64,000 bases of DNA from Escherichia coli (GTDB lineage Bacteria; Pseudomonadota; Gammaproteobacteria; Enterobacterales; Enterobacteriaceae): assembly GCF_003018255.1 (NCBI RefSeq), contig NZ_CP027440.1; one strand, 5' to 3'. This document shows positions 7,397 through 31,784 of the stretch, one piece after another; the stretch's first letter is position 1, and every line of letters begins with the position of its first letter. The notes beneath the pieces were generated by a model that worked only from the letters and a program-made list of their open reading frames with translations, had not been told where the DNA came from and searched no databases. The position numbers and the translations under genes were made by a program.

Positions 7397-7423
7397 TGAG
7401 TGGTTCTGCAAGAGGAAATAAGC

Positions 7424-7624
7424 ATGGACTGGCTGGCTAAATATTGGTGGATTCTGGTGATTGTCTTTTTGGTAGGCGTCCTGCTGAACGTGATTAAAGA
7501 TCTCAAGCGCGTCAACCATAAGAAATTTCTCGCCAACAAGCCGGAGCTTCCCCCGCATCGTGATTTCAACGATAAGTGGGACGATGACGACGACTGGCCG
7601 AAAAAGGATCAACCGAAGAAGTAA
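7424..7624 (+). CDS. ypfN: Small membrane protein YpfN
   Basis: ORF 7400..7624; likely start at [21 protein letters not shown] (one TM helix) with an acidic C-terminus [14 protein letters not shown]; 66 aa. Confidence 0.8.
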
Positions 7625-7632
7625 GCTAAGTG

Positions 7633-7662
7633 GCCGGATAAGGCGTTAACGCCGCATCCGGC
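7633..7662. repeat. REP (repetitive extragenic palindromic) element
   Basis: gccggataaggcgttaacgccgcatccggc between convergent ypfN and ypfH. Confidence 0.8.
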
Positions 7663-7704
7663 CATGATGCCTGATACAGTCTTATCAGACCTACCCGGCT
7701 ATTA

Positions 7705-8403
7705 TTACATCATTTCAATCACATCATCATCGCCAGGCTTACCGCCGCTTAGCGCTTCGTCGAAATAATGTTTCGGAATGGTATAACGCAAGTGATCCAG
7801 AGCAAATTGCATACTGCGATTGTCGATCGCATGGCCTAAATCCTCCACGATATCCAGCGTCACGTCACCACCGGCACTGATTAACGCTTCCTGCGCCGCA
7901 ACCGCATGCGCCAGATCGATAACCGGATCTTCACCGCCATGAATCAGGTGAATTGTCGTGGCTGTAGACGCAGTTTCCGGCAGGCTCGCATAGCGTCCGT
8001 TAAAGGCAATGACGCGTGAGGCAAGGCCCGGTTCGGCTTTAATGCTCTCCAGCGCCATAATCGCGCCTTGAGAGAAACCGATTAACGCCGTGGCGGTAGC
8101 CCCTACTCCGCTCTGTTTCTGCCAGTAGCGCACCGTCTCAATAAACGTCGGCATGATGGCATCCACACGCGCCTGGCGATTATCTTCCGTAATACCCTGC
8201 ACCGAAAACCACTGACGCCCCGCCGGATTACCGCTCGGCTCCGCGCCTCCGACACTCACCACCAGCGCATCAGGAAATAGCGGCGCAAACCAGCTACCTA
8301 TTTCCCCCATTGCCACCGGGTTATCCCCGACACCGTGGAAAAGCAGTAACAACTGTTGCGCAGGTTTATCCGGGCTTTGAACAACAAAATGGTCATGTTT
8401 CAT
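7705..8403 (-). CDS. ypfH: Alpha/beta-hydrolase fold esterase YpfH
   Basis: ORF 7705..8427; GFSQG (GxSxG) nucleophile elbow; probable start at MKHDHFVV for a 232-aa product. Confidence 0.85.
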   Translation of the reverse strand: MKHDHFVVQSPDKPAQQLLLLFHGVGDNPVAMGEIGSWFAPLFPDALVVSVGGAEPSGNPAGRQWFSVQGITEDNRQARVDAIMPTFIETVRYWQKQSGVGATATALIGFSQGAIMALESIKAEPGLASRVIAFNGRYASLPETASTATTIHLIHGGEDPVIDLAHAVAAQEALISAGGDVTLDIVEDLGHAIDNRSMQFALDHLRYTIPKHYFDEALSGGKPGDDDVIEMM

Positions 8404-8476
8404 GGCGAACTCCTTAACTGATGTCATTAATTTTACGCCGCTGACTCACAATGACCATGGGAGAAAATTGAAGGAG

Positions 8477-10492
8477 TCAGTGAAAAAATTGCCATTGCGT
8501 TATGCGATCGCGCAAACGCTCAGTGCGAACATCATCAAGTGCGTATAGCGCCTGCGCGGCCTCTTCCCGCTGACGGACCAGTAACAGCTTACGGCCTGAA
8601 AGTTTAAGTGTGGTACATAACTGCGCGTCGCTGGCGTTTTTCTGTAAACGCCCACGCAGCGCCGGTAATGCCATTTCGCTGGTTTGTAACAGACGCATTA
8701 AGCAACCTAACGACGTTAATAGCGGACGATGAGCGAAAGCAAAACCGGCCAGTTCAAGCCAGTCGTCGGCAGAAAGCACGATATCGTTTAGTGGATCAAC
8801 AGGGAGCGTTTCGCCATTCCACTTTGCGAGAGCTTGCGCATCGCGACGTAAACGGTAATGCTCACGTTCAGCCAGCTGTTTACCCGCATCACTCATCGGT
8901 AACAGCGCCATCGCCGTATAGCAACCGCTGCTGGCTTCACGATGATTACCCATTCGCACCAGCACAAAACCGCAGCGTTGCCAGAAACGCCATAATTCCC
9001 CGGTGTAACCAAAACTCACCGAAAGATAGTCGAGGTCATGCGTATATTGCAAAGCACCAGCAATCAGTTGCTGACCTGTGCCTTCCCGCTGACGAGCCGG
9101 ATGAACTGCTATCCGGCTAACCCGCCTTCCGCGCAATGTCGCCGCCAGTGGATTGCTGCCGTGCGCCGCCAGCGACTGGGCCACCAGATTACCCCGCGGG
9201 CGACGAAAACCTGCCCATACCGCCTGACTGAGTTCTTGAGATAATCCGCCCTCATCCACCAGCCACAGCGCCCCGGCAATCGCGTTTTCGCCAGCCGCCT
9301 GTAAAAAATGTTGCCCTGGTGCATCCATCATGCGGCGTAAATCCAGCGGCGAAGTCCGGTAGTGCGCACCAGACAATAATTGATAAACCTTTAACGGCGT
9401 TTGTGGCTCGCTTCGCCATAACGTCTGTTCAAATGCGGAAATGACGATATTGCCTTGTGGTGTGTGGGTGAAGTTTTCATCGTCAAAAACCAGTGCCTCA
9501 CTAACCATTTTTTCCAGCGGGCATCCCTGTGCCCAGCGGATCGGCTGTTGCAGTTCAAAACGGTGTAAATGCGGAAAGCGAGCGCAAAATTTCAGCAAAA
9601 AACCACGTCCCGTGCCTTCGTAGCCCTGCACCGTAGTGGTTAACAACGTTCGAGGAAAACGCGATACCAGTTGATGCAACAACGGCGCAGGTATGGCTGC
9701 GGCTTCATCGACCACCAGCCAGTCGGCTTGCTCATCGCTGGCTAACAAGGCATCCGGCGCAATAAAGCGAAACTTCTCGCCCGCAAATTGTGCCAGTACA
9801 TACGTTGCCGCTTTTGCGGGCGCGGTGACAATCGCACTACCCGCAATACGAGAAATGAGTTGCCCTGCCAGCGCCGATTTACCGCGCCCACGCGCAGCCG
9901 TTACCACCGCCACGCCCAATGGCATGGTCAGTAGCTGCTGTAAGAGTTGCTGTTGTTCTGGCTGTGGTGCGCCGGTCGCGGGGTGCCAGTCAGTACGGGG
10001 AGTAAAATGCGCCAACGTGAACGGCTGGTTCTGCCGCCAGAGGATAGCGTCGTTATTCGCCGTAAGTACGCGTTTGAGATGCTGGACAAAATGCGGCGTC
10101 GCAATAGGGTCAGGGCAATCACTCCATCGCAGCGAGTCGGCATCAGGTTGGTTTTCCCACTCTTCCCATACAGGGAGTAACAAAACCAGCCAGCTTCCCG
10201 CTTTCAACGTTCCGCTAAGTGCCGCAAAGGCAGCGGCATCAAAGCCGTGGCGGGCGTCGAATACCGCATGCCGGAACTCGCGCCCAAGTAAAGTTTGTAG
10301 CGCCGAGGGAGAACAGTGGTTTTCAGCATCTGGCTGCGGCGAAATCCACAGCCAGTCGCCAGGTAAGGCATCACGCAACTTAAGCGCATGATCAAAACAC
10401 CAACCCTCTTCCCCGCTCAACACCAGCAAGCGGCGGATCCCTTCACGTTTCATTTGCGCTGTTAATGTGTGAAGCGCAGTCAGTTCAGCCAT
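8477..10492 (-). CDS. tmcA: tRNA(Met) cytidine acetyltransferase
   Basis: 671 aa; Walker A GRGKSAL helicase-like domain plus C-terminal GNAT region. Confidence 0.88.
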   Translation of the reverse strand: MAELTALHTLTAQMKREGIRRLLVLSGEEGWCFDHALKLRDALPGDWLWISPQPDAENHCSPSALQTLLGREFRHAVFDARHGFDAAAFAALSGTLKAGSWLVLLLPVWEEWENQPDADSLRWSDCPDPIATPHFVQHLKRVLTANNDAILWRQNQPFTLAHFTPRTDWHPATGAPQPEQQQLLQQLLTMPLGVAVVTAARGRGKSALAGQLISRIAGSAIVTAPAKAATYVLAQFAGEKFRFIAPDALLASDEQADWLVVDEAAAIPAPLLHQLVSRFPRTLLTTTVQGYEGTGRGFLLKFCARFPHLHRFELQQPIRWAQGCPLEKMVSEALVFDDENFTHTPQGNIVISAFEQTLWRSEPQTPLKVYQLLSGAHYRTSPLDLRRMMDAPGQHFLQAAGENAIAGALWLVDEGGLSQELSQAVWAGFRRPRGNLVAQSLAAHGSNPLAATLRGRRVSRIAVHPARQREGTGQQLIAGALQYTHDLDYLSVSFGYTGELWRFWQRCGFVLVRMGNHREASSGCYTAMALLPMSDAGKQLAEREHYRLRRDAQALAKWNGETLPVDPLNDIVLSADDWLELAGFAFAHRPLLTSLGCLMRLLQTSEMALPALRGRLQKNASDAQLCTTLKLSGRKLLLVRQREEAAQALYALDDVRTERLRDRITQWQFFH

Positions 10493-10506
10493 CCCTGCCC
10501 CGGAAG

Positions 10507-11370
10507 TTAAATGCTTTTACCAAAAGTATTGCATTGTGCCGGATCGCCGCTGTCGAAACCACGTTTAAACCAGCTGTAGCGTTGCTGAGAAGTGCCATGA
10601 GTGAAACTGTCTGGTACTACTCGCCCCTGACTTTGCTGTTGTAAACGGTCATCGCCGATGGCCTGCGCCGCGTTCAGCGCCTCTTCCAGATCGCCGGTTT
10701 CCAGAACACCTTGCTGCTGCATACTATGCCCCCAGACACCGGCAAAACAGTCGGCCTGGAGTTCCATACGCACAGATAAGCGGTTCACTTCCGCCTGCGT
10801 CGCGTTTTGTTGCAGTTGACGAACTTTCGGCTCGATGCCTAACAGTTTCTGCACATGATGACCGACTTCATGGGCGATAACGTACCCCTGGGCAAAATCG
10901 CCATCCGCGCCAAGTTTGTCTTTCATGTCATCATAGAAGGAGAGATCGATATAAACCGTGCCATCCGCCGGGCAATAGAACGGTCCCATTATGGACTGGC
11001 CCGCCCCGCAGCCGGTGCGCGTCATTCCACGGTACATGACCAGCTTCGGTTGCTGATAGGTTTTACCCATCTTCTCGAATTGCTGTCCCCAGGTGTCTTC
11101 CGTGGTTGCCAGAATCACCGAAGTGAATTTTGCGGCTTCGTCTTCATTAGGACTAATTGACCGTGTTGATTGCTGTTGGGAAACCGGCTGTCCGGTCATC
11201 AACCCGGTTAAATCAACGCCATAGTAGCCTGCAACCAGCACGACTATCAGTAAAATCAGCCCGCCTTTACCGCTTGGCAGGCGAAAACCTGGACCGCCCA
11301 TTGACGGACCACCAGAGCTGTTGCGCCTGTCTTCAACATTGTCACTTTCACGTCGCCCTTGCCAACGCAT
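10507..11370 (-). CDS. ypfJ: Predicted zinc metalloprotease YpfJ
   Basis: 287 aa; N-terminal TM segment and HEVGHH zinc-binding motif. Confidence 0.85.
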
Positions 11371-11537
11371 AGATACCTCAACAATATATTCATTATAGAA
11401 ATGATCGTAGGTGGTTCAGAGGAAGATTACCACAGGAAAGCGGGATGAAATGGCGGAGGAATGAGCGTTCAATACTCATCTTATGAGAGCGGTTGTCTTG
11501 CCGTGCCAGCTGCACGGCAAGATGATGAACAGAAAAA

Positions 11538-12251
11538 TCAGTCCAGCTGTACACCCAGGCGGCGGGCGACGGCTTCATAGGCCTCGATCAGGCCACCGAG
11601 GCTCTGGCGGAAACGGTCTTTGTCCATTTTCTCCAGCGTTTCTTTGTCCCACAAGCGGCTGCCGTCCGGGGAGAACTCATCGCCCAGTACCACTTCACCT
11701 TTGTACAGACCAAACTCCAGCTTGAAGTCGACCAGAATGAGACCAGCATCATCGAACAGTTTTTTCAGCACGTCGTTCGCTTTGTAGGTCAGCTCTTTCA
11801 TGCGTGCCAGGTTCTCTTTGCTTACCCAGCCAAAGGTTTCGCAGTAAGATTCGTTGACCATCGGATCGTGCATGGCGTCGTTTTTCAGGAACAGATCGAA
11901 CAGTGGCGGGTTCAGCTCAATACCTTCTTCGATTCCAAGACGTTTCACCAGAGAGCCAGCAGCACGGTTACGCACGACACACTCAACCGGCACCATATCC
12001 AGCTTTTTCACCAGACATTCGGTATCGGAGAGCAGACGCTCCATTTGAGTCGGGATACCCGCTTCAGCCAGTTTGCTCATAATGAAGTAGTTGAACTTGT
12101 TGTTCACCATACCTTTGCGATCAAACTGCTCAATGCGCGCGCCATCCCCTGCTGACGTATCATTGCGGAATTCGAGCACCAACAGGTCCGGGTTTTCCGT
12201 GCTGTATACGGTTTTCGCTTTACCACGATACAACTCAGCTTGCTTTTGCAT
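11538..12251 (-). CDS. purC: Phosphoribosylaminoimidazole-succinocarboxamide (SAICAR) synthase
   Basis: ORF 11538..12260; probable start at [16 protein letters not shown] for a 237-aa product. Confidence 0.92.
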
Positions 12252-12303
12252 CTTTATCACTCCTGGGTGTGAATTAACGTTTTAAAATCTATTGCTGTCT
12301 GGT

Positions 12304-12360
<57 letters not shown>

Positions 12361-12463
12361 ACAAATTTCGTGCGAATTACCGCTAAAATCGCGTTTTTCT
12401 GCCGACGCACACGTTTGCGTATCATATCAGAAAAAAGGGCCGGATGACTCCAGCCCTGTATTT

Positions 12464-13498
12464 TTACTTGCTAAACGCAGCCTGGAAGACAGCTACCAGC
12501 GCGTCGTTCTGACTCTGAGTCAGAGTATGACCTTTCGGATCGATGAACTGTAGGCTGCTGCGGTTATCTAAATCGCCAACCTGCAGTTTATAGTCACCGG
12601 ATGCCAGACCTGGATCGCTCGCGCCCAGTTCGTGCCATTCGCTGTCAGACAGCGGCTTGTAAGTTACGGCCATGTTGCCCTGCGAACGGGTGCTGTCGGT
12701 CACTTTCATGCCCACTTTTTCCAGCGCAGCTGGCAGACGTTGCCAAACCACATTAAACGGCCCGCGTACGACCAGCATTGGTAAACCGGTGTCATCAGCT
12801 GCACTTTGTACGTCCATAGTGGTGGAGGCACGATTTTGCGCAGCGTTCGCGGCGTCAGTGGCAGATTTATCCAGACCGGCGGAAATAACGTTCATCATCT
12901 CCGTGCTGTAACGCTGCATGGAAGCCGCGTCTGCAACCGGTTTGCCCGCCTGTTCCAGGTTCAGCAGTTTAACCGTAACCGCCTGCTGATAACCCTGCGG
13001 CTTAACAGAGATTTGATAACGACCACGATACTGCTCGTCTTCGTCCAGACGGTTCCATTGTACCCAATCGGTGGTCAGTGTCTGACCAGCATCATCACGT
13101 TGGGTGATGGTGTAGTTTTTCGCCTGCAGCACGCTAACCACCTGCGGCCACAGAGTATTGCCACGACCATTTTCCACCAGCAATGAAGCGGTATCGCCCG
13201 TGAACTGGGTACGCGCGCCAGAAACCAGTGCCAACGGCTGGGCTGGTGGACGAATGTCCAGCGCCTTACCGACAGCACCACTACCGTTGGTCACCGGGAT
13301 TGCATAATCGCCGGAGGTCACCGGCAAAATCATTCCAGCCGGGGCATGAAGCTCCGCAAGCGGTGCCGCTTCCAGGTAGGCTTCATCACCACTGACCTGA
13401 CGCTTATAGCGTGAGTCAGAACTACAGGCAGCGAGTAATAAAACAAGCGAAACACCCGCAACCTTTGCCAGGCGCGACTTTTGAACAGAGTAAGCCAT
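12464..13498 (-). CDS. bamC: Outer membrane protein assembly lipoprotein BamC (NlpB)
   Basis: Signal peptide with lipobox LLAACSS; 344 aa; downstream of dapA in the same orientation. Confidence 0.9.
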
Positions 13499-13514
13499 CA
13501 AATCTCCCTAAACT

Positions 13515-14393
13515 TTACAGCAAACCGGCATGCTTAAGCGCCGCTCTGACCGTCTCACGACCACTGTCGGTGATTGGTGTCATTGGCAGGCGCAGCGTAT
13601 CGGTCGCCACAAGACCCAGTTCCTTACATGCCCATTTCACCGGGATTGGATTGGGTTCGACAAATAGTTTGTTGTGTAATGGCATCAGACGCTGATTAAT
13701 AACGCGTGCCTCGGCAAAATGCCCTTCTGCTGCCAGTTTGCACATCTGGGCCATATCACGCGCTGCGACGTTAGCCGTAACGGAAATAACCCCATGACCG
13801 CCTAATTGCATGAAGTCCAGCGCGCTCGCATCATCGCCGCTCAGCAGAACAAAATCATCTGAAACCAGCTCTTTGATCTGGTTTACACGCGTTAAGTTCC
13901 CTGTTGCCTCTTTGATTCCGATAATATTTTTTACTTTCGCCAGACGGCCCACCGTTTCCGGGAGCAGATCGCAGCCAGTACGGGACGGCACATTATACAG
14001 AATTTGCGGCAGGTCAGTATGTTCAGCGATGGCTTTGAAATGCTGATACAAACCTTCTTGCGACGGACGATTGTAGTAAGGGGTTACCGTCAGGCAGCCG
14101 ACGATACCGCTGTCATTGAAGCGCTGCGTCAGGCTAATGGCTTCCGCAGTAGCGTTAGCACCGGTCCCGGCAATCACCGGAATGCGCCCGTCAGCCAGCT
14201 CCAGCGTCATCATCACCACATCAGCATGTTCGTCATGATTTAAGGTAGCGGACTCGCCAGTGGTGCCAACAGAAACGATCGCCGAAGTACCGCTGGCGAC
14301 ATGATAATCAATCAGTTTTTTCATGCTAGCCCGACAGACATTACCTTTTTCATCCATCGGAGTAACAATCGCGACAATACTTCCCGTGAACAT
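13515..14393 (-). CDS. dapA: 4-hydroxy-tetrahydrodipicolinate synthase
   Basis: ORF 13515..14411; probable start at [17 protein letters not shown] for a 292-aa product. Confidence 0.92.
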
Positions 14394-14538
14394 GGGCCAT
14401 CCTCTGTGCAAACAAGTGTCTCAATGGTACGTTTGGTATGGCATTAAAAGCAAGCAGACAGAACCGTTCTGATTGTTGTATGCATGTTTTTTTTATGCTT
14501 TCCTTAAGAACAACTCACCCCTTGAAGGAATAACCAGT

Positions 14539-15111
14539 TTGACACTGTCATCGCAACATTATCTGGTGATCACTGCGTTGGGTGCCGATCGCCCTGGAAT
14601 TGTGAACACCATCACCCGTCATGTCAGTAGTTGCGGCTGTAATATTGAAGACAGTCGCCTGGCGATGCTGGGAGAAGAGTTCACGTTTATCATGCTGCTT
14701 TCCGGTTCATGGAATGCCATTACTCTGATTGAATCAACGTTACCGTTGAAAGGTGCCGAGCTGGATCTTTTAATCGTGATGAAGCGCACGACGGCGCGTC
14801 CGCGTCCGCCAATGCCAGCATCTGTCTGGGTTCAGGTCGATGTGGCAGACTCCCCGCATTTAATTGAACGCTTCACAGCACTTTTCGACGCGCATCATAT
14901 GAACATTGCGGAGCTGGTGTCGCGCACGCAACCTGCTGAAAATGAACGGGCTGCGCAGTTGCATATTCAGATAACCGCCCACAGCCCCGCATCTGCGGAC
15001 GCAGCAAATATTGAGCAAGCATTCAAAGCCCTATGTACAGAACTCAATGCACAAGGCAGTATTAACGTCGTCAATTATTCCCAACATGATGAACAGGATG
15101 GAGTTAAGTAA
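14539..15111 (+). CDS. gcvR: Glycine cleavage system transcriptional repressor (ACT domains)
   Basis: ORF track begins at 14473, but the conserved protein begins at LTLSSQHYLVITALGADRPGIV; probable TTG start at 14539 giving 190 aa. Stop overlaps the bcp start (TAATG). Confidence 0.8.
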   Translation: MTLSSQHYLVITALGADRPGIVNTITRHVSSCGCNIEDSRLAMLGEEFTFIMLLSGSWNAITLIESTLPLKGAELDLLIVMKRTTARPRPPMPASVWVQVDVADSPHLIERFTALFDAHHMNIAELVSRTQPAENERAAQLHIQITAHSPASADAANIEQAFKALCTELNAQGSINVVNYSQHDEQDGVK

Positions 15112-15581
15112 TGAATCCACTGAAAGCCGGTGATATCGCACCGAAATTTAGCTTGCCGGATCAAGACGGAGAACAAGTTAATTTGACCGACTTCCAGGGA
15201 CAGCGTGTTCTGGTTTATTTCTACCCGAAAGCCATGACCCCCGGCTGTACCGTACAGGCCTGCGGCTTACGCGATAACATGGATGAGTTGAAAAAAGCGG
15301 GCGTTGATGTGCTGGGTATCAGCACCGATAAACCCGAAAAACTCTCCCGTTTTGCGGAAAAAGAGCTGCTTAACTTTACGCTCCTGTCTGATGAGGACCA
15401 CCAGGTGTGCGAACAATTCGGCGTCTGGGGTGAAAAGTCCTTCATGGGCAAAACCTACGATGGTATTCATCGCATCAGCTTCCTGATTGACGCTGATGGC
15501 AAAATCGAACATGTCTTTGACGATTTCAAAACCAGCAATCACCACGACGTTGTGCTGAACTGGCTGAAAGAACACGCCTGA
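15111..15581 (+). CDS. bcp: Thiol peroxidase / peroxiredoxin Bcp
   Basis: 156 aa; peroxidatic cysteine motif FYPKAMTPGCT. Confidence 0.92.
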   Translation: MNPLKAGDIAPKFSLPDQDGEQVNLTDFQGQRVLVYFYPKAMTPGCTVQACGLRDNMDELKKAGVDVLGISTDKPEKLSRFAEKELLNFTLLSDEDHQVCEQFGVWGEKSFMGKTYDGIHRISFLIDADGKIEHVFDDFKTSNHHDVVLNWLKEHA

Positions 15582-15679
15582 TTACTTTGCTCCATTCCGT
15601 GCTGGCTGCGCTTGCGGCCAGCACATCTCACATCTTCTCACTGCCCTGCAACACTCGTTTCAAATTTTTTCGCTGAAGG

Positions 15680-16741
15680 TCAGTCTTGCGCGATTTGCCC
15701 ATCGGGCCAGGCGTGAATCACGGCTTTGATCAGCGTCGCCAATGGAATGGCGAAGAATACGCCCCAGAATCCCCACAAACCACCGAAGATCACTACTGAT
15801 AAAATAATGACCAGCGGATGCAGGTTAACCGCTTCGGAGAACAACACAGGTACTAACAGGTTGCCGTCCAGCGCCTGAATGATCAGATACACCGCGAAGC
15901 AGCTCCAGAATTCCGTGCCAGCACCAAACTGGAATAGCGCCACGCCAACCACCGGAATGGTCACCACAAATGCACCAATGTACGGAATAAGTACCGAGAA
16001 GCCGACCAGCACCGCCAGCAGCAGCGAATAGTTCAGCCCGAAGAGTAAGAATCCCAGCCAGGTGGCAATCCCCACCACGATCATCTCCAGCACTTTGCCG
16101 CGGATATAGTTGGTGATTTGTTGATTCATCTCCTTCCACACCTGTCCTGCCAGTCCACGGTTACGCGGCAGCACCCGGCGAACGGCGTTCAGCATCTGCT
16201 CTTTGTCTTTCAGCAGGAAGAAGACCATCAATGGTACCAGCACCAGATAGACGGCAATGGTCAGCAAACCGACCAGCGAGGCGAGGGAAATTTTCACCAC
16301 CGAATCGCCCATGGTCAGCATCCGACTGCGCATATTTTCGGCCATTGCATCAATAATGCCCGCATCCATTAACGCCGGATAGCGGCGCGGCAACGTGGCG
16401 GCAAAGTCAGAAAGCTTATTGAGCATCCCCGGCATATCGCGGATTAAGTAGATGCCCTGCTGCCAGGCGATAGGCAGTACCACGAACGCCATCAGTAGCA
16501 ATATACCGACGAAAACCACCAATACAATCGACGTCGCCCAGCGGCGGGAGCAGCCAATAGATTGCAGGCGCACGGTTGGCCATTCCAGCAAATAGGCCAG
16601 CACAATAGCCACCAACAGCGGAGCAAGCAGGCCACTAAAGAAAAAGATAATGCCAAATCCGGCAACTAAAATAACCAGCAAGGCAATCGCTTCCGGGTCG
16701 CTAAAACGGCGGCGATACCATTGCATCAACATTTCGAGCAT
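15680..16741 (-). CDS. perM: AI-2E family inner membrane permease PerM (YfgO)
   Basis: 353 aa, polytopic membrane protein; follows bcp directly in this strain. Confidence 0.85.
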   Translation of the reverse strand: MLEMLMQWYRRRFSDPEAIALLVILVAGFGIIFFFSGLLAPLLVAIVLAYLLEWPTVRLQSIGCSRRWATSIVLVVFVGILLLMAFVVLPIAWQQGIYLIRDMPGMLNKLSDFAATLPRRYPALMDAGIIDAMAENMRSRMLTMGDSVVKISLASLVGLLTIAVYLVLVPLMVFFLLKDKEQMLNAVRRVLPRNRGLAGQVWKEMNQQITNYIRGKVLEMIVVGIATWLGFLLFGLNYSLLLAVLVGFSVLIPYIGAFVVTIPVVGVALFQFGAGTEFWSCFAVYLIIQALDGNLLVPVLFSEAVNLHPLVIILSVVIFGGLWGFWGVFFAIPLATLIKAVIHAWPDGQIAQD

Positions 16742-16953
16742 ACAGACCTTCCCTGAACCTCAAGAGCGGGATTGCGATCCGCAATTGTATCGAAATGCCA
16801 CAAAAAAGACTTCGCTTTTTATGACGGATTCAGGAAACTGAAAAGTCATTTGAGTGGGCTAATCTTCGCCGTTACACTCAAAGGCGGCGCGGTGGGAACG
16901 ATATTTCACAGTATCGGTCAAATGACTATCTCCAGAAATACAGGATAGAGGTT

Positions 16954-18417
16954 ATGTTCAGGCAGTTGAAAAAAAACCTGGTTGCAACCCTCATTGCTGC
17001 TATGACCATTGGTCAGGTAGCCCCGGCGTTTGCCGACAGCGCAGACACCTTGCCGGATATGGGAACCTCCGCAGGAAGCACACTTTCCATTGGTCAGGAA
17101 ATGCAGATGGGCGACTATTATGTCCGCCAGCTACGCGGCAGCGCGCCGTTAATTAATGATCCGCTGTTAACGCAATACATTAATTCGCTAGGAATGCGTC
17201 TGGTTTCGCATGCCAATTCGGTTAAGACACCGTTTCATTTCTTTCTGATCAACAACGATGAAATTAACGCCTTTGCTTTCTTTGGCGGCAACGTGGTGCT
17301 GCACTCTGCCCTGTTCCGTTATTCCGATAACGAAAGTCAACTGGCTTCAGTTATGGCGCACGAAATCTCCCACGTCACCCAACGTCACCTGGCGCGAGCG
17401 ATGGAAGATCAGCAGCGCAGCGCGCCGCTGACCTGGGTCGGCGCGTTAGGTTCTATTTTACTGGCGATGGCCAGTCCGCAGGCGGGGATGGCTGCGCTGA
17501 CCGGTACACTGGCGGGAACGCGCCAGGGGATGATCAGCTTCACCCAGCAAAATGAACAGGAAGCGGACCGCATTGGTATTCAGGTGCTGCAACGCTCAGG
17601 ATTCGATCCGCAGGCGATGCCGACCTTCCTCGAAAAATTACTCGATCAGGCGCGTTACTCCTCGCGTCCGCCGGAAATTTTATTGACTCACCCGTTGCCG
17701 GAAAGTCGTCTGGCAGATGCCCGCAACCGTGCTAATCAGATGCGCCCGATGGTGGTGCAGTCGTCGGAAGATTTCTATCTGGCGAAAGCGCGCACACTGG
17801 GGATGTATAATTCCGGACGTAACCAGCTCACCAGTGATTTGCTGGATGAATGGGCGAAAGGAAACGTTCGTCAGCAACGAGCGGCGCAATATGGTCGTGC
17901 TTTACAGGCGATGGAAGCCAATAAATACGACGAGGCGCGTAAAACGCTGCAACCGTTACTGGCGGCAGAACCTGGCAACGCATGGTATCTCGATCTGGCT
18001 ACTGATATCGATCTTGGGCAAAACAAAGCCAATGAGGCGATCAATCGTCTGAAAAATGCCCGCGATTTACGCACCAATCCGGTGTTGCAGCTCAACCTGG
18101 CGAACGCTTATCTGCAAGGCGGTCAACCACAAGAAGCGGCCAATATTCTGAATCGCTACACCTTTAATAATAAAGATGACAGCAACGGCTGGGATTTGCT
18201 GGCACAGGCGGAAGCCGCGCTAAATAACCGCGATCAGGAGCTGGCTGCGCGAGCAGAAGGTTATGCGCTCGCCGGACGACTCGATCAGGCCATTTCGCTG
18301 TTGAGTAGCGCCAGTTCGCAGGTGAAATTAGGCAGCCTGCAACAAGCGCGTTACGATGCGCGCATCGACCAGTTGCGCCAGCTGCAGGAACGCTTTAAGC
18401 CTTATACCAAGATGTAA
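16954..18417 (+). CDS. bepA: Periplasmic M48 metalloprotease/chaperone BepA (YfgC)
   Basis: 487 aa; signal peptide, HEISH zinc motif, C-terminal TPR-like region. Confidence 0.9.
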
Positions 18418-18437
18418 TTCGCATTAAAGGAAGAACA

Positions 18438-18797
18438 ATGACCAAACAGGTAAAAATCTACCATAACCCACGCTGTTCAAAGAGCCGGGAAACGCTGAAC
18501 CTGCTGAAAGAAAACGGCGTGGAGCCAGAAGTGGTGCTCTACCTTGAGACACCCGCCGATGCGGCAACGCTGCGTGATTTGCTGAAAATGCTGGGGATGA
18601 ATAGCGCTCGTGAATTGATGCGCCAGAAAGAGGATCTTTATAAAGAACTGAACCTGGCTGACAGTTCGCTTAGCGAAGAGGCGCTGATTCAGGCAATGGT
18701 GGATAATCCGAAGCTAATGGAGCGCCCGATTGTGGTCGCGAATGGCAAAGCGCGGATTGGTCGTCCACCGGAGCAGGTACTGGAAATCGTGGGTTAA
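18438..18797 (+). CDS. yfgD: ArsC-family reductase-like protein YfgD
   Basis: 119 aa; N-terminal KIYHNPRCSKSRETL motif of the ArsC family. Confidence 0.85.
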   Translation: MTKQVKIYHNPRCSKSRETLNLLKENGVEPEVVLYLETPADAATLRDLLKMLGMNSARELMRQKEDLYKELNLADSSLSEEALIQAMVDNPKLMERPIVVANGKARIGRPPEQVLEIVG

Positions 18798-18827
18798 GAA
18801 GTGCTCCATCGCTAGTTGAAGCACATT

Positions 18828-18860
18828 GCCGGATGCGACGCTTGCCGCGTCTTATCCGGC
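18828..18860. repeat. REP element
   Basis: gccggatgcgacgcttgccgcgtcttatccggc between convergent yfgD and hda. Confidence 0.8.
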
Positions 18861-18902
18861 CGACGAATACTATGGGTGCATATCCGACAATAAACGTCTT
18901 GT

Positions 18903-19649
18903 CTACAGTTTCAGAATTTCTTTCACAAACGGAATGGTCAGCTTACGTTGCGCGGTAATCGACGCACGATCCAACTGATCCAACGTCATAAATAACGTGC
19001 GCATCTCTCTGTCGAGCCGCTTCAGCAAGAAACGCCCCACATCTTCCGGCAGTTCAAAACCACGCAAACGCGCGCGTAACTGTAGCGCCTGCAACTTATC
19101 TTCATCAGAAAGTGGCTGCAATTTGTAGATCTGCCCCCAGTCGAGACGCGACGCGAGATCCGGTAATCCAAGATTCAACTGCCGCGGTGGACGATCGCCG
19201 GTGATTAACAACCGTGTTTTGCCCGATTCCAGAATTCGATTGTAGAGATCGAAAATCGCCATCTCCCACAACTCATCGCCTGCAATACACTCAATGTTGT
19301 CGATACAGACCAGCGACAAATGCTCCATACCGTCGAGCACTTCCGGAACAAACCAGGTGCGTTTATCCAGCGGGACATAGCCCACCGCATCGCCACGCTG
19401 CGACAATTCCGCGCAAGCCGCGTGCAGCAGATGGCTGCGCCCCGCGCCTTCGCGTGCCCAGAGATAGATGTAACCGCTATGTTCCTGACGCAGCACGTTT
19501 TGCAGCGCGGCCAGTAAAGAGGAGTTATCCCCCGGCCAGAAACTTGCAAAGGTTTCGTCGTCAGGAAGATAAAGTGGCAAAGAGAGCTGTGCCGGTGTGT
19601 TCAGAGATACCTCAACCAGGATTTCACAAAATCGCGAGAAGTTTACCAC
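18903..19649 (-). CDS. hda: DnaA-inactivating AAA+ protein Hda
   Basis: DnaA-like AAA+ fold. ORF-track start gives 248 aa; the functional start is probably the internal non-AUG codon near 19604 ([14 protein letters not shown]..., 233 aa) as I recall for K-12. Confidence 0.85.
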
Positions 19650-19698
19650 AGAATCCCATGATGTTTGAACCGGGCAGCAACACTGCCCGGTCGGTACA

Positions 19699-20988
19699 TT
19701 ATTTGTCTGTTATATCCGCGTCTTCTGCGTCCAGCACCACTTCTTCAGGGCGCAGCATACTAATCAGTTTGAAGATCAAACTTAAGCCGATACCGACGAT
19801 GGTCGCCAGCGCCATACCTTTCAGCTCCGCCGCGCCAATGTTTACCTTCGCGCCACTGACGCCGATGATCAAAATAACGGAAGTCAGGATCAGGTTCTGT
19901 GCTTTGTTGTAATCCACTTTCGATTCGATCAACACACGAATACCGGAAGCACCGATGACACCGTAAAGCAGCAGCGAAACGCCGCCCATCACCGGCAATG
20001 GAATCATCTGGATAGCTGCAGCCAGTTTACCGACGCAGGAAAGCAGGATAGCGAAAATCGCCGCACCGCCGATAACCCAGGTACTGTAAACACGGGTGAT
20101 CGCCATCACGCCAATGTTTTCTCCGTAAGTGGTGTTTGGCGTGGAGCCAAAGAAGCCGGAGATCACGGTCGACAAGCCGTTAGCAAACATCGAACGGTGC
20201 AGACCTGGATCGCGCAGCAGATCTTTTTTGACGATATTAGCCGTTACGACCAGGTGCCCTACGTGTTCGGCAATAACCACTAACGCCGCTGGTAGAATAG
20301 TCAGAATGGCAAACCACTCGAAGCGCGGCGTATAGAGGGTCGGCAGCGCAAACCAGTGAGCATTAATAATCGGCGTGGTATCGACAATTCCCATTGCGAA
20401 AGAGAGCGCGTACCCCACCAGCACGCCAATTAAAATCGGGATAATTGCCAGGAAACCACGAAACAGCACGGAACCTAAAACCGTGACCGCCAGGGTGGTA
20501 ATAGAGATGATGATGGTTTTGGAGTCTGGCGTTTGCCCTTCAGCCGGGAGTAAACCCGCCATACCGGCAGCTACGCCCGCCAGCTCCAGACCGATGACGG
20601 CAACGATTGCGCCCATTGCCGCAGGTGGAAACAGCACGTCCAGCCAGCCGGTCCCCGCTTTCTTCACGATAAAAGAAACCAGGCAGAACAGCACGCCGCA
20701 CATAATAAAGCCGCCCAGCGCAACTTCATACCCCAACGGCAACAGTAACAATACCGGTGAAATAAAGGCAAAGCTGGAACCAAGATAAGCCGGAATTTTC
20801 CCTTTACAGATGAAGAGATACAGCAGTGTTCCTATACCGTTAAATAACAGTACAGTCGCCGGGTTAATATGAAATAAGACGGGCACCAGGACGGTTGCAC
20901 CAAACATGGCGAACAAATGTTGCAAACTAAGCGGGATTGTCTGTAAAAGTGGCGGTCTTTCACTCACCCCGATAGCACGGCGCGTCAT
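19699..20988 (-). CDS. uraA: Uracil:proton symporter (NCS2 family)
   Basis: ORF 19699..21030; probable start at [16 protein letters not shown] for a 429-aa product. Confidence 0.9.
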
Positions 20989-21029
20989 AGTATTATCCTC
21001 TGTATTATGTGTTATAGGCGCTTTACTCA

Positions 21030-21066
21030 AAAAAAAGCCGACTCTTAAAGTCGGCTTTAATTATTT
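21030..21066 (-). terminator. Intrinsic terminator/attenuator between upp and uraA
   Basis: Stem agccgact / agtcggct with loop cttaa; T7 run follows on the minus strand. Confidence 0.7.
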
Positions 21067-21073
21067 TTATTCT

Positions 21074-21700
21074 TTATTTCGTACCAAAGATTTTGTCACC
21101 GGCATCGCCGAGGCCCGGAATAATGTATCCGTGCTCGTTCAGTCCCTGGTCAATCGATGCAGTATACAGTTCGACGTCCGGGTGCGCTTTTTCCAGCGCA
21201 GCGATACCTTCTGGCGCAGCGACCAGCACCAGAACTTTGATGCTGCTGCAGCCCGCTTTTTTCAGCAGGTCGATGGTCGCGATAACGGAACCACCGGTTG
21301 CCAGCATTGGGTCAACGATCAGCGCCATACGCTCATCGATGTTAGAAACCAGTTTCTGGAAGTACGGTACCGGCTCCAGCGTTTCTTCATTACGGTACAT
21401 ACCGACGACACTGATGCGCGCACTCGGAACGTTTTCCAGCACACCGTCCATCATCCCAAGACCCGCACGCAGAATTGGCACAACGGTAATTTTCTTACCT
21501 TTGATCTGGTCGATTTCTACCGGGCCGTTCCAGCCTTCGATAGTGACTTTTTCCGTTTCGAGGTCGGCGGTCGCTTCGTAAGTCAGCAGGCTACCCACTT
21601 CGGAAGCGAGTTCGCGAAAGCGCTTGGTGCTGATATCTTGCTCACGCATCAGTCCCAGCTTGTGTTTGACGAGTGGGTGTTTGACTTCCACGATCTTCAT
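21074..21700 (-). CDS. upp: Uracil phosphoribosyltransferase
   Basis: ORF 21074..21727; probable start at [14 protein letters not shown] for a 208-aa product; upstream of uraA. Confidence 0.92.
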
Positions 21701-21726
21701 ACTCTTTCTCCTTTGAGGGGCAGCCA

Positions 21727-21771
21727 CAAAAAAAATCGACGGATTATACCTCCTTTCTTCAAGGCGGCAAT
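21727..21771 (-). promoter_or_regulatory. upp promoter with U-tract initially transcribed region (UTP-sensitive reiterative transcription)
   Basis: On the minus strand: TTGCCG (-35), 16-nt spacer, TATAAT (-10), then cgaTTTTTTTTg (plus-strand A8 at 21728-21735). Confidence 0.6.
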
Positions 21772-21945
21772 ATTATTTTCGTTGACTTTAGTCAAAATGA
21801 TAACGGTTTGAGATAAAGTTATTTTATATTCAAATGGTTATGGAAGAAGATTATTCCATCCGAAAACGATCCTTTGCCCTAGTACAAGTATTCTTTCGCC
21901 GCGCGCCTGGGGAAAAGACGTGCAAAAAGGTTGTGTAAAGCAGTC

Positions 21946-21961
21946 TCGCAAACGTTTGCTT
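21946..21961 (+). promoter_or_regulatory. PurR operator (pur box) in the purM control region
   Basis: tcgcaaacgtttgctt with palindromic core gcaaacgtttgc, ~65 bp upstream of the purM start. Confidence 0.8.
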
Positions 21962-22006
21962 TCCCTGTTAGAATTGCGCCGAATTTTATTTTTCTACCGC
22001 AAGTAA

Positions 22007-23061
<1,055 letters not shown>

Positions 23062-23062
<1 letters not shown>

Positions 23063-23700
23063 TGAATATTGTGGTGCTTATTTCCGGCAACGGAAGTAAT
23101 TTGCAGGCAATTATTGACGCCTGCAAAACCAACAAAATTAAAGGCACCGTACGGGCAGTTTTCAGCAATAAGGCCGACGCGTTCGGCCTTGAACGCGCCC
23201 GCCAGGCGGGTATTGCAACGCATACGCTCATCACCAGCGCGTTTGACAGTCGTGAAGCCTATGACCGGGAGTTGATTCATGAAATCGACATGTACGCACC
23301 CGATGTGGTCGTGCTGGCTGGTTTTATGCGCATTCTCAGCCCGGCGTTTGTCTCCCACTATGCCGGGCGTTTGCTGAACATTCACCCTTCTCTGCTGCCG
23401 AAATATCCCGGATTACACACCCATCGTCAGGCGCTGGAAAATGGCGATGAGGAGCACGGTACATCGGTGCATTTCGTCACCGATGAACTGGACGGTGGCC
23501 CGGTTATTTTACAGGCGAAAGTCCCGGTATTTGCTGGTGATACGGAAGATGACATCACCGCCCGCGTGCAAACCCAGGAACACGCTATTTATCCACTGGT
23601 GATTAGCTGGTTTGCCGATGGTCGTCTGAAAATGCACGAAAACGCCGCGTGGCTGGATGGTCAACGTCTGCCGCCGCAGGGCTACGCTGCCGACGAGTAA
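23062..23700 (+). CDS. purN: Phosphoribosylglycinamide formyltransferase
   Basis: 212 aa; start overlaps the purM stop (TAATG), consistent with the purMN operon. Confidence 0.92.
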
Positions 23701-23870
23701 TGCCCCGTAGTTAAAGCGCCAGCTCTGCCGCTGGCGTTTTTCAATTCACCTGTAAATCGCAAGCTCCAGCAGTTTTTTTCCCCCTTTTCTGGCATAGTTG
23801 GACATCTGCCAATATTGCTCGCCATAATATCCAGGCAGTGTCCCGTGAATAAAACGGAGTAAAAGTGGTA

Positions 23871-27483
<3,613 letters not shown>

Positions 27484-27489
27484 TGCTTT

Positions 27490-27516
27490 GCGGGCCGACG
27501 AGAAATGTCGGCCCGC
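27490..27516. terminator. Bidirectional hairpin between convergent ppx and pdeF
   Basis: gcgggccgac gagaaat gtcggcccgc, a perfect 10-bp stem. Confidence 0.7.
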
Positions 27517-27521
27517 ATTAT

Positions 27522-29765
27522 TCAGGCACTTTCGCGAATGGGTTCGATTTCATTCAGCGTATCAATTAACGGTTGCGGCTTACCAATAAGATAACCCTGC
27601 ATATAATCGATCCCCAAAGAGAGCACCGCCTCGCGGATCTCTTCGTTTTCAACGTACTCTGCCACTACCCGCATTTTCTTCATTCGCGCCAGGTGGCAAA
27701 TCGACGCCACTATCTGATAATCCAGACTATTTGACACAATATTGCGGATAAAACTGCCGTCAATTTTAAGCAGATCGGCATTCACATTTTTAAGCCGCGC
27801 ATAGCTGGCGTAGCCGGTGCCGAAATCATCAATCGCAATCTGGCAGCCTAATTCCTGAAGATGCTGCAAGGTGATTTGCGCCTGCTTAACATTGGTCAGA
27901 GCATTACTTTCGGTGACTTCAAAAATAAGTTGCCACGCTTCAATCTGATATTTAGCCAGCAGCTGACTGACTTCAACAGGAAAACGAGCCTGACATACCG
28001 AGGTTGGCGACAGATTAATCGCAAAACGGTGAGCGGGCATCTTCGCTCTGTTTTCAGCCATAAATTGCAGCGTATGCTCAATGACCCACATGTCGATACT
28101 CGACGATAAACCAAATTCGTGCGCGACCGGTAAGAAGCTATCGGGGCTGATCAGTTCATCATTCTCACCTTTCATGCGCAGAAGAATTTCATGGTAGACA
28201 TCACCACGCATACCGGTAATCGGCTGGGCCATCAGGAAAAAATGGTTGTGTTCCAGCGCCCGCTGTAGCCGATTCATCATCGCGACTTTATCTTTCAATT
28301 CGCGTTGCAAATACATTGCTCCGCGACGCTGCATATTTTCCGGGGCGTTGGTCACGATAGAAAGTTCGGCCACTGTATTTAGCTCTCCCAGCAGCAGGTA
28401 GATATGATTCACTGGCGAGCGCACATAGCAGTAACTGACGCCAATCTGCGGTTGCATCGGCATTCCATCCCAAAAGAAACGAAATTGCTTGAGATGGCTA
28501 TCCAGTGCGGTAATGCGCTCCTGGTGCGATTCTGTATTCAGCCGCAGCGCGAGATCGTTACCCGAAAGCTGATAAACATCTTCACCCGGTTCCAGCAATG
28601 GTGACAGCCAGTGAGAAAGTTTTTGCTTGTATTGAATCCGCAGCATGATGCCATAATTCTTAACCAGCATTTCCATGCCAGGGATGCGTAAATAACAAAG
28701 CGCAGACCAGGGGGCATCACGTAACGCGCGATTCAGGGCGCGAACATTTGGCAGATGAACCACCGGGTCCACATACGCAAGCCGCTGAATGCGTCTGACT
28801 ACCGCTCGCTGACGGGTTGCCAGTACAGCCATATAATTGACAATAAAAGAGAATACCAGATAACTGGAGGAGGTTATGGTCAGCTGCGTGGTATAGCCAG
28901 GATAAATGGGAATGTAATTTTGATAGCTGTGGATGCTGATCATCAACACGACCGCCCAGAGCAATGAAATCAGCTTATAACCATAGCGCATCGCTCCCCA
29001 CATCATCAGGGGCAGCAATAATGACAAGGTGTAATTGGTGCTAAAAATCGTGCTTTTTTCATTTAACGGCATGCATAACAGCAATAGTAAAGCACCTAAT
29101 GCCAGTAGCCAGATTGCGAACTCTTTTTTGGTAACTTTGGCATCAACCTGCTGTTTTAATTGCGAATAATAGCTACGTAAATAAAACGGATTTCGCACCA
29201 CCCGAATGATGAAGTAGCACAGCGGGACACCAATCAGATTACCCACCAGCAAGGCCTGATAATTGATTAAGGTCCCGAGGTTAAAGGGCATGACGCCGAC
29301 CAGATTTTCTCTGCTCGCCAGTAATCCAACAAACGCAGCAAACTGGAAAAGTATCAGAAACAGCGTTGCAGGAAACACAATCTGCCAGAATAGTCGCTGG
29401 GAAATTAAACGGCTATCACCATGTGAAACGTTGTTACGCCGGGGAGTAAAAACCCTGTAACCGCCCCAACAGAGAATGATAATGATAATAAAATTAGCCG
29501 TTAATGAGAGCGTTTCGTAAAAACCCAGCTCTGCATATTTGCGGACAAAAATCCCTAAGGCGATCCCTGGCAATGCCGCCCAGCTGAAAAACATCATCAT
29601 GCTGATCATCAGTGCCAGTGGCAGATAAAAGAGAAAAACTTCACCGGAAGAAATATGCGCGAAAGTATTAATGTGGGCGAAAATGGGCAAGATTAAAGAA
29701 GGCAGGAACAGCGGAAGCCCCCACCATTTATCACGTATTTTTATATAAGTTGCATTCAGTTTCAT
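27522..29765 (-). CDS. pdeF: Membrane-anchored c-di-GMP phosphodiesterase PdeF (YfgF)
   Basis: 747 aa; N-terminal polytopic membrane region, degenerate GGDEF-like middle, C-terminal EAL domain. Confidence 0.85.
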   Translation of the reverse strand: MKLNATYIKIRDKWWGLPLFLPSLILPIFAHINTFAHISSGEVFLFYLPLALMISMMMFFSWAALPGIALGIFVRKYAELGFYETLSLTANFIIIIILCWGGYRVFTPRRNNVSHGDSRLISQRLFWQIVFPATLFLILFQFAAFVGLLASRENLVGVMPFNLGTLINYQALLVGNLIGVPLCYFIIRVVRNPFYLRSYYSQLKQQVDAKVTKKEFAIWLLALGALLLLLCMPLNEKSTIFSTNYTLSLLLPLMMWGAMRYGYKLISLLWAVVLMISIHSYQNYIPIYPGYTTQLTITSSSYLVFSFIVNYMAVLATRQRAVVRRIQRLAYVDPVVHLPNVRALNRALRDAPWSALCYLRIPGMEMLVKNYGIMLRIQYKQKLSHWLSPLLEPGEDVYQLSGNDLALRLNTESHQERITALDSHLKQFRFFWDGMPMQPQIGVSYCYVRSPVNHIYLLLGELNTVAELSIVTNAPENMQRRGAMYLQRELKDKVAMMNRLQRALEHNHFFLMAQPITGMRGDVYHEILLRMKGENDELISPDSFLPVAHEFGLSSSIDMWVIEHTLQFMAENRAKMPAHRFAINLSPTSVCQARFPVEVSQLLAKYQIEAWQLIFEVTESNALTNVKQAQITLQHLQELGCQIAIDDFGTGYASYARLKNVNADLLKIDGSFIRNIVSNSLDYQIVASICHLARMKKMRVVAEYVENEEIREAVLSLGIDYMQGYLIGKPQPLIDTLNEIEPIRESA

Positions 29766-30116
29766 AGATGCTCAGCAGAATCCCCCACATCCTGAAGGAG
29801 GTGTATTCAGACAGGCATCCCACCTGACTTCGAATGATGATTATTCATCACTATAGAGAGCAATGATTCTAAGTGTCATATGAAAGTTCCAATTGATATA
29901 TATCAAACAAAATAACCCTGATTAATGAATTATTACGTTTATCATGTTAACTCATCATTATTACATAATCATTGTAAATAATTAAATTAACTTCCATAAC
30001 ATTAAAATATGTATCCACTGACGCTTTTTTACATAACGAAGAATTGACCATTTTGTCCTGTTGTGCCTTAATGTAAGTACCGTCCACGGCGTGGGACATA
30101 CTTCAAGGAACCTTTT

Positions 30117-30308
30117 GTGAGTCAGGCAACCAGTATGCGAAAACGACACCGATTTAACAGTCGCATGACCCGTATCGTACTGCTCATCAGCTTTATCTTC
30201 TTCTTTGGCCGTTTTATCTACTCGTCCGTCGGTGCCTGGCAGCACCATCAGAGCAAAAAAGAAGCTCAGCAATCCACACTCTCCGTCGAATCACCGGTAC
30301 AACGTTAG
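30117..30308 (+). CDS. yfgG: Small protein YfgG (one TM helix)
   Basis: 63 aa; hydrophobic segment IVLLISFIFFFGRFIY; conserved position between pdeF and yfgH. Confidence 0.75.
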   Translation: MSQATSMRKRHRFNSRMTRIVLLISFIFFFGRFIYSSVGAWQHHQSKKEAQQSTLSVESPVQR

Positions 30309-30456
30309 CGGTTACCTTCTCCACTCTCACAGAACATAACGGCACCTCGCTGTCGGATGCTTTTGCTCTTTGGGATTATCAAAGCGGCAGATATTTTTTC
30401 ATCTTAAATTTTACGTTTTTGTCCTGACTGATGTTTATCCTGTTCGACTGCGAAAT

Positions 30457-30494
30457 AAATACATCATTAATACATATGTTGTGATGATGTATTT
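30457..30494. promoter_or_regulatory. Perfect 11-bp inverted repeat (aaatacatcat N16 atgatgtattt) upstream of yfgH
   Basis: Seen directly at 30457-30467 and 30484-30494, ~125 bp upstream of the yfgH start, in an AT-rich spacer. Confidence 0.5.
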
Positions 30495-30618
30495 TTATAA
30501 ATTATTTCCCGCATGAATTTTAATAAATTTAATCTATTCCTTTATACGCAATACATTTACTTTCCTCTTTTGATGATCTTAAATGTCTTATTTTTCGTAA
30601 TGTGTATAACAAGGAATA

Positions 30619-31137
30619 GTGATGAAATTTAAAAAATGTCTTCTGCCTGTGGCAATGTTAGCGTCATTCACTCTGGCAGGATGCCAGTCAAATGCTGATG
30701 ATCATGCCGCCGATGTTTATCAAACCGATCAACTGAATACCAAACAAGAAACTAAAACCGTTAATATTATTTCCATTCTTCCCGCAAAAGTTGCCGTAGA
30801 CAACGCCCAAAATAAACGGAACGCACAAGCCTTCGGCGCGCTTATTGGCGCTGTCGCTGGCGGTGTTATCGGCCACAACGTCGGGTCTGGCAGCAATTCC
30901 GGAACGACGGCAGGTGCAGTTGGCGGCGGAGCTGTAGGCGCGGCAGCGGGTTCTATGGTGAATGATAAAACCTTAGTGGAAGGTGTTTCTTTAACATATA
31001 AGGAAGGCACCAAAGTGTATACCTCCACCCAGGTGGGTAAAGAGTGCCAGTTTACGACAGGTTTAGCCGTTGTTATTACCACGACGTATAACGAAACACG
31101 TATTCAGCCAAATACCAAATGTCCTGAAAAGAGCTAA
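30619..31137 (+). CDS. yfgH: Outer membrane lipoprotein YfgH (glycine-zipper)
   Basis: 172 aa; lipobox TLAGCQS; Gly-rich segment GALIGAVAGGVIGHNVGSG. Confidence 0.85.
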   Translation: MMKFKKCLLPVAMLASFTLAGCQSNADDHAADVYQTDQLNTKQETKTVNIISILPAKVAVDNAQNKRNAQAFGALIGAVAGGVIGHNVGSGSNSGTTAGAVGGGAVGAAAGSMVNDKTLVEGVSLTYKEGTKVYTSTQVGKECQFTTGLAVVITTTYNETRIQPNTKCPEKS

Positions 31138-31152
31138 TAATCAGGAGGAGTC

Positions 31153-31692: not shown

Positions 31693-31730
31693 ACGATGTT
31701 AGTAACTTCAAACCTATAATTCTTTAGGAT

Positions 31731-31762
31731 AAAAAACCCTCTGTAGTAACAGAGGGTTTTGT
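31731..31762. terminator. Bidirectional terminator between convergent yfgI and guaA
   Basis: aaaaaaccctctg tagtaa cagagggttttgtt; stem flanked by A-run and T-run. Confidence 0.8.
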
Positions 31763-31784
31763 TCATTCATAGTGCAGGGTCAAA

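Follow-up and report, generated by a model that had tools for sequence, protein, structure and literature searches.

The hda gene in the window, a stretch of 64,000 nt of Escherichia coli DNA, is almost certainly transcribed mainly from its own promoter with a start at position 19633 and translated from a CUG codon preceded by the Shine-Dalgarno sequence GAGGT, which yields a product of 233 residues. The open reading frames considered here are real genes, and the sole question is where each of them starts. In the program-made ORF list, hda occupies 18903..19649 on the minus strand, with a GTG start and a length of 248 aa. Codon 16 of this ORF is a CTG at 19604-19602, and from there the frame runs for 233 codons and reads LNTPAQLSL. 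The earlier note had proposed from the sequence that the ORF is over-extended and that functional Hda of 233 aa begins at an internal non-AUG codon near 19604. On both points it was right: the ORF is 15 codons too long, the curated K-12 entry and the PGAP call both comprise 233 aa, and the coordinate is exact.

The following features of the hda region are referred to below.

18903..19604, minus strand: corrected hda coding sequence, 233 codons plus TAG stop; the same span is given in K-12 (NP_416991.2) and by PGAP (WP_001307333.1)
19572..19589, minus strand: clamp-binding motif QLSLPL, which occupies residues 6-11 when the CTG is residue 1 (numbering of PMC5397184, and sequence)
19602..19604, minus strand: hda initiation codon CTG, decoded as Met; invariant in 80/80 Enterobacteriaceae species
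19609..19613, minus strand: Shine-Dalgarno sequence GAGGT, with the GAGG core 5 nt from the CTG; based on conservation and duplex energy
19605..19633, minus strand: 29-nt 5' leader of the monocistronic hda mRNA; based on the published start site, the 120 nt upstream being identical to K-12
19605..19649, minus strand: spurious 15-codon N-terminal extension, with the GTG at 19649-19647; no codon periodicity, frame-shifting lengths
19640..19648, minus strand: extended -10 element TGgTAAACT; based on conservation and the measured start site
19668..19692, minus strand: hairpin of the uraA terminator, immediately preceding the hda promoter; 11-bp stem, -22.2 kcal/mol, z = -6.4

In the curated annotation of K-12 MG1655 (NC_000913.3), hda (b2496, NP_416991.2) comprises 702 nt and 233 aa, and its first codon is CTG. 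RefSeq/PGAP reports the identical 233-aa span (WP_001307333.1) for a strain whose sequence agrees with the window at 100% identity along a 1201-nt hda query. Matches to this query were obtained in 5425 of 5426 complete E. coli genomes and reached 100% identity in several, consistent with the assignment of the window to E. coli; the median number of matching places per E. coli genome was three. Since PGAP probably took this call over from the curated K-12 protein, the two are not independent, and we therefore sought evidence that does not depend on annotation.

Because the curated annotation records CTG, the start codon of hda is already known, and the over-long ORF is, as the earlier note held, an annotation pitfall and not a biological novelty. 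Non-canonical start codons are rare in E. coli, and hda is one of the very few genes that have one. Its CUG start was reportedly established by Su'etsugu et al. in 2008 (J Biol Chem). A full-text search of the available literature returned no explicit statement of the Hda CUG start, and a 2017 review of the DnaA cycle does not mention the hda start codon. What we consider mildly new is the invariance of the CTG across the order, the position of the false GTG next to a -10 element and a likely two-codon mis-start in many annotations outside Escherichia.

Constraint on the hda start codon

For the comparative set, we scanned a single genome of each species and kept the best 80 loci, all of which belong to Enterobacteriaceae and show 92-100% protein identity. 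The codon aligned with the E. coli hda start is CTG in each of the 80 species, as it is in all four other Enterobacterales analyzed (Yersinia, Erwinia, Proteus and Dickeya), and the 233-codon frame that begins with it is uninterrupted in 80/80 species. Codon 1 is the only invariant codon among the 31 positions that are leucine in all 80 species; the other 30 vary synonymously, often to TTG. Over the whole of hda, the codon is invariant at 2 of the 162 positions at which the residue is invariant. Since the start CTG is fixed while the other leucine codons vary, it is constrained at the nucleotide level in the manner of a start codon and unlike an internal leucine codon. The second of the two invariant codons may, judged from the alignment, be CCG at codon 4, which could reflect a constraint on the initiation region. 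Together with the beginning of codon 5, this codon (19593..19595) forms the sequence CCGGC, which is 100% conserved across the 80 species.

The sequence preceding the CTG behaves very differently from the sequence following it. In 46 of the 80 species, the frame upstream of the CTG contains no ATG, GTG or TTG before a stop is reached; the upstream in-frame stop lies within 15 codons in 60 species and within 6 codons in 28, and an in-frame start 15 codons upstream, as in E. coli, is found in only seven. The counterpart of the E. coli stretch from the GTG to the CTG ranges from 43 to 49 nt among the species, and in 86% of them its length shifts the frame, whereas the first 56 nt after the CTG show zero length variation. 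Nucleotide diversity at the three codon positions is 0.255/0.259/0.254 upstream of the CTG versus 0.075/0.021/0.292 downstream of it, a change from a flat to a coding pattern that places the onset of codon periodicity exactly at the CTG. The first canonical codon downstream of the CTG changes its place between species, from codon 9 to codon 38. As expected of a near-cognate start, no canonical codon accounts for the conserved Hda N-terminus, and the CTG combines constraint at the nucleotide level with a Shine-Dalgarno sequence at functional spacing.

This Shine-Dalgarno sequence, GAGGT followed by a 5-nt spacer, precedes the CTG in 79/80 species. Its calculated duplex with the 3' end of 16S rRNA has an energy of -6.9 kcal/mol, compared with -4.0 kcal/mol for the GTG at 19649, and is the strongest among the starts compared here (about 7% of random 20-mers reach -6). 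In the mechanism that we propose, the 30S ribosomal subunit would bind GAGGT (19613-19609) and begin translation at the CUG located 5 nt further on (19604-19602), with initiator tRNA; the product would be the 233-residue Hda that carries the beta-clamp-binding motif QLSLPL at residues 6-11.

The protein itself agrees with a start at the CTG. The window encodes a protein that shows no difference from K-12 Hda or from the 233 native residues in PDB entry 5X06, in which a tag is followed by MNTPAQ and the native part aligns to ORF residues 16-248; the methionine is there by construct design. The published residue numbers of Hda (G55, R56, S57, N103, R153 and the motif 6-QLSLPL-11; PMC5397184) fit only if the CTG encodes residue 1. 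Among 137 diverse full-length Hda representatives, the QLxL-type motif has a median position of 5 and a mode of 4, compared with position 21 in the 248-aa form. The NCBIfam profiles of Hda begin at ORF residue 14 (a model of 235 positions) or 21, so that the first 13 residues of the ORF lie outside every profile; the scores were 476.6 bits for NF005982 (Hda; cut-off 268) and 281.4 bits for TIGR03420 (cut-off 194.8). The sequence hallmarks of Hda are present: the beta-clamp-binding motif of the type QL[SP]LPL near the N-terminus, the AAA+ domain, the Box VII arginine finger R153, and the ADP-contacting residues G55, R56 and S57. Stimulation of DnaA-ATP hydrolysis together with the DNA-loaded clamp is assumed from the identity to K-12 Hda.

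In seven distant Hda homologues with 40-64% identity (loci L088-L094), the called starts are GTG, GTG, TTG, ATG, ATG, TTG and ATG, respectively, which confines the CTG start to Enterobacterales in the sample examined. That four of these seven starts are non-ATG may indicate that the family as a whole favours weak starts, but the sample is small and dependent on the gene callers.

Transcription of hda and the competing start sites

The GTG at 19649-19647 adjoins and partly overlaps the extended -10 element TGgTAAACT. The corresponding pattern TGnTA[A/G/C]ACT is present in 80/80 species, 33-39 nt upstream of the CTG, and several of its columns are 100% conserved. From the position of the hexamer, we predicted a transcription start near K-12 position 2618805; the site published from SMRT-Cappable-seq, a single high-throughput data set, is exactly NC_000913.3 2618805 on the reverse strand, for an hda (b2496) transcript listed as monocistronic (PMC6131387 Supplementary Data 2). 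This nucleotide corresponds to window position 19633, which follows the hexamer by 7 nt and the GTG by 16 nt and precedes the CTG by 29 nt. A simple consensus scan of 19500-19800 called no promoter or terminator at its thresholds, and we accordingly infer the function of the -10 element from its conservation and the measured start site. The 29-nt leader gave nothing significant in an RNA structure test (z = +0.95), and an Rfam search returned no match near hda; the only Rfam match in the window at the gathering threshold was the small RNA sroE (53087..53178, minus strand; 116.6 bits). hda would then be transcribed mainly from its own promoter with the extended -10 element TGgTAAACT, starting at 19633 and having an unstructured leader, and the 15 extra codons of the ORF track would be promoter and leader DNA that is open in frame by chance in E. 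coli.

A second source of hda mRNA lies upstream. The published end of the upp-uraA transcript at K-12 2618838 (PMC6131387) corresponds to window position 19666, 2 nt past the uraA hairpin at 19692-19668. In M9 medium, 95 reads pass this terminator into hda and 37 stop (PMC6131387); with read-through of this extent, hda is expressed from two kinds of transcript. As transcription from the hda promoter starts downstream of the GTG at 19649, the main hda mRNA lacks this codon, and only the read-through transcripts contain it. The hairpin region (19664..19692, minus strand) has almost no U-tract and abuts the hda promoter. At the other end of the gene, the intergenic region between the convergent arsC/yfgD and hda genes (18798..18902) contains a palindromic REP-like repeat (GCCGGATAAGACGCGGCAAGCGTCGCATCCGGC).

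These transcripts bear on the first competing start. That the GTG at 19649 gives rise to a genuine 248-aa protein, be it the main product or a second isoform made from upp-uraA-hda read-through transcripts, is in our view very improbable. Its frame is open in the window and in K-12, and because the reported read-through transcripts include the GTG, a minor 248-aa product in E. coli is conceivable; the monocistronic mRNA, however, lacks the codon, and its Shine-Dalgarno duplex is weak (-4.0 kcal/mol). The 248-aa form is frequent in automatic predictions (cluster P0002 with 3510 member sequences from Logan and ENA predicted-protein sets), but curated annotation has rejected this start. Conservation also speaks against it: an in-frame start at this position occurs in only 7/80 species, the lengths shift the frame in 86% of them, and the 15-codon extension is devoid of coding periodicity. 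Finally, the 248-aa form would place the clamp-binding motif at residue 21, far from the family median of 5.

Initiation at the TTG of codon 9 (19580-19578), which would give the 225-aa protein of some automatic annotations, has a negligible probability: TTG is a canonical start codon and a form beginning MPLYLPDDE is found in public annotation (P0064), but codon 9 is TTG in only 42/80 species (CTG or TTA in the others), it lacks an upstream Shine-Dalgarno sequence, coding periodicity and purifying selection set in at codon 2 and not at codon 10, and the protein would be deprived of Q6, L7 and S8 of the clamp-binding motif, which is bound to the clamp in the crystal structure (PMC5397184). Truncated forms of Hda of 225, 221 and 197 aa also occur among predicted proteins; together with the 3510 sequences of the 248-aa cluster, they show that mis-starts of hda are widely propagated. 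A short upstream ORF in a different frame (ATG at 19659, 11 codons) was considered as a coupling device and rejected; its ATG is missing in most species and lies upstream of the transcription start.

Initiation of hda at the CTG has practical consequences for the laboratory: the 248-aa form puts 15 extra residues before the clamp-binding motif, which matters when Hda is expressed or its residues are numbered.

The longest-ORF rule and the starts of gcvR, purM and narQ

Corrections had also been proposed in the earlier note for gcvR (TTG at 14539), purM (GTG at 22025) and narQ (GTG at 393), and these match the curated K-12 lengths, the family profiles and the structures. In the alignment with curated K-12 N-termini, hda and these three genes all begin at the proposed downstream codons; a curated reference that uses the upstream start was found for none of the four. 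The corrected coding sequences are the following.

14539..15111, plus strand: gcvR, TTG start, 190 aa (K-12 NP_416974.4, PGAP); the extension 14473..14538 is spurious
22025..23062, plus strand: purM, GTG start, 345 aa (K-12 NP_416994.1); the extension 22010..22024 is spurious
393..2093, plus strand: narQ, GTG start, 566 aa (K-12 NP_416964.1, PGAP); the extension 378..392 is spurious

For gcvR, the ORF track has a TTG at 14473 and 212 aa. Position 1 of the NCBIfam profile NF008612 aligns to ORF residue 23, that is, to the TTG at 14539, and in the structure of the Vibrio cholerae GcvR homologue (1U8S) residue 4 aligns to ORF residue 28, with no counterpart of the 22-residue extension. The Shine-Dalgarno duplex energies are -5.7 kcal/mol for the TTG at 14539 and 0.0 kcal/mol for that at 14473. 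A gcvR-bcp transcription start with read counts has been published at K-12 2599878, and a second start is listed at 2599806 (PMC6131387); they correspond to window positions 14511, between the two TTG codons, and 14439, upstream of both. A statement of the gcvR UUG start was not found by full-text search of the available literature.

For purM, which is 350 aa long from the GTG at 22010 in the ORF track, the 345-residue chain of PDB 1CLI begins VTDKTSL and aligns to ORF residue 6, and the duplex energies are -5.5 kcal/mol (GTG at 22025) versus -0.2 kcal/mol (GTG at 22010). The purM transcription start lies upstream of both candidates and therefore does not discriminate between them. For narQ, 571 aa from the GTG at 378 in the ORF track, residue 2 of PDB 5IJI and position 2 of the NCBIfam profile NF008184 both align to ORF residue 7, which puts residue 1 at ORF residue 6; the duplex energies are -6.4 kcal/mol (GTG at 393) versus -3.3 kcal/mol (GTG at 378). 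The upstream GTG of both purM and narQ belongs to the very Shine-Dalgarno region that serves the true start. Translation of gcvR, purM and narQ would accordingly begin at the downstream TTG, GTG and GTG that carry a Shine-Dalgarno sequence, and the upstream TTG and GTG codons would be chance codons brought in by the longest-ORF rule.

How general this artefact is was assessed by comparing the longest-ORF rule with the PGAP calls over 33 genes of a closely related strain (locus L001; window 378..35000). Thirteen of the 33 genes were over-extended, by the following numbers of codons.

Non-ATG true starts: narQ 5, gcvR 22, hda 15, purM 5
ATG true starts, longer extensions: guaB 23, uraA 14, upp 9, ypfH 8, ypfN 8, dapA 6
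ATG true starts, shorter extensions: purC 3, ppk 2, bamC 1

As nine of the 13 have ATG as their true start, the cause is the choice of the first ATG, GTG or TTG after a stop and not non-AUG initiation as such. Thus, the part of the earlier note that called the ORFs over-extended stands, whereas its attribution of the over-extension to non-AUG starts calls for refinement; the longest-ORF rule has the same effect on genes with ATG starts. hda differs from gcvR, purM and narQ in that CTG is outside the start set of the ORF caller, so that the track could never have called it correctly. In practical terms, these data matter for annotation: about 40% of the genes in the compared stretch come out too long in a longest-ORF track.

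Related systems and the dosage of Hda

The closest known system is K-12 hda (b2496), the DnaA inactivator of the RIDA pathway. It shares with the window the 233-aa protein and the 120 nt upstream, with CTG, Shine-Dalgarno sequence and -10 element all the same, and it has the same neighbours (uraA upstream, yfgD/arsC convergent downstream); it differs by seven nucleotides within the coding sequence, which leave the protein unchanged. Elsewhere, the window is distinguished from K-12 by the absence of the hyf operon and by an extra adhesin gene. The 13-kb hyfABCDEFGHIJR-focB cluster of K-12 is missing between bcp and yfgO (15581..15680) both in the window and in strain 104. Between xseA and der, where the K-12 annotation has only the small gene yfgJ, the window contains an ORF of 2684 aa (36504..44558, minus strand), annotated as 'adhesion domain-containing protein' in strain 104. 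In strain 104, in turn, ypfJ and purC are separated by a vapBC toxin-antitoxin pair, which is missing in the window (11370..11538 versus 11410..12339 of locus L001, a difference of ~760 bp).

With regard to the start codon, hda resembles infC and pcnB, which likewise start outside AUG, GUG and UUG, with a few percent of AUG efficiency, and whose products are needed in small amounts. They differ from hda in that their start is AUU instead of CUG, and for infC autoregulation by IF3 is known. Hecht et al. name infC and pcnB as the only confirmed non-canonical E. coli starts and omit hda (bioRxiv 10.1101/063800).

Beyond Enterobacteriaceae, Hda of Yersinia, Erwinia, Hafnia, Dickeya and Proteus is annotated with 235 aa (MLLNTPAQ). 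Yersinia, Erwinia, Dickeya and Proteus have the GAGGT, the 5-nt spacer and the CTG in common with E. coli, and three of these four also have a comparable TGnTA -10-like element upstream (ATGCTAAACT in Dickeya). They differ from E. coli in the codon two positions upstream of the CTG, which is GTA in E. coli and GTG in these genera; this GTG is embedded in the Shine-Dalgarno sequence GAGGTG, and the gene callers pick it (loci L083-L086, positions 395-410; GAGGTGCTTCTG). Two codons further on, the conserved CTG is correctly spaced at 5 nt, and the 235-aa annotations may therefore be two codons too long.

In reporter assays, CUG initiates at ~1-2% of AUG (bioRxiv 10.1101/063800), and for this reason Hda is plausibly scarce; the weak CUG in combination with a good Shine-Dalgarno sequence plausibly keeps its level low. 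Among the 84 sampled species, the start codon is never the synonymous and stronger TTG, although TTG is common at the other leucine positions. A further reading, which we advance tentatively and hold to be rather unlikely as a whole, is that the CUG start is an actively maintained limiter of Hda dosage across Enterobacterales and not a historical accident, with a possible sensitivity to IF3 and start-codon fidelity, and with the 235- and 248-aa annotations being mis-starts. If this were true, Hda synthesis could respond to IF3 and start-codon fidelity, as is the case for the AUU of infC, the annotations of 235 aa, with their GTG inside the Shine-Dalgarno sequence, and of 248 aa, both widespread, would be mis-starts, and the translational status of the cell would be coupled to the control of replication initiation.
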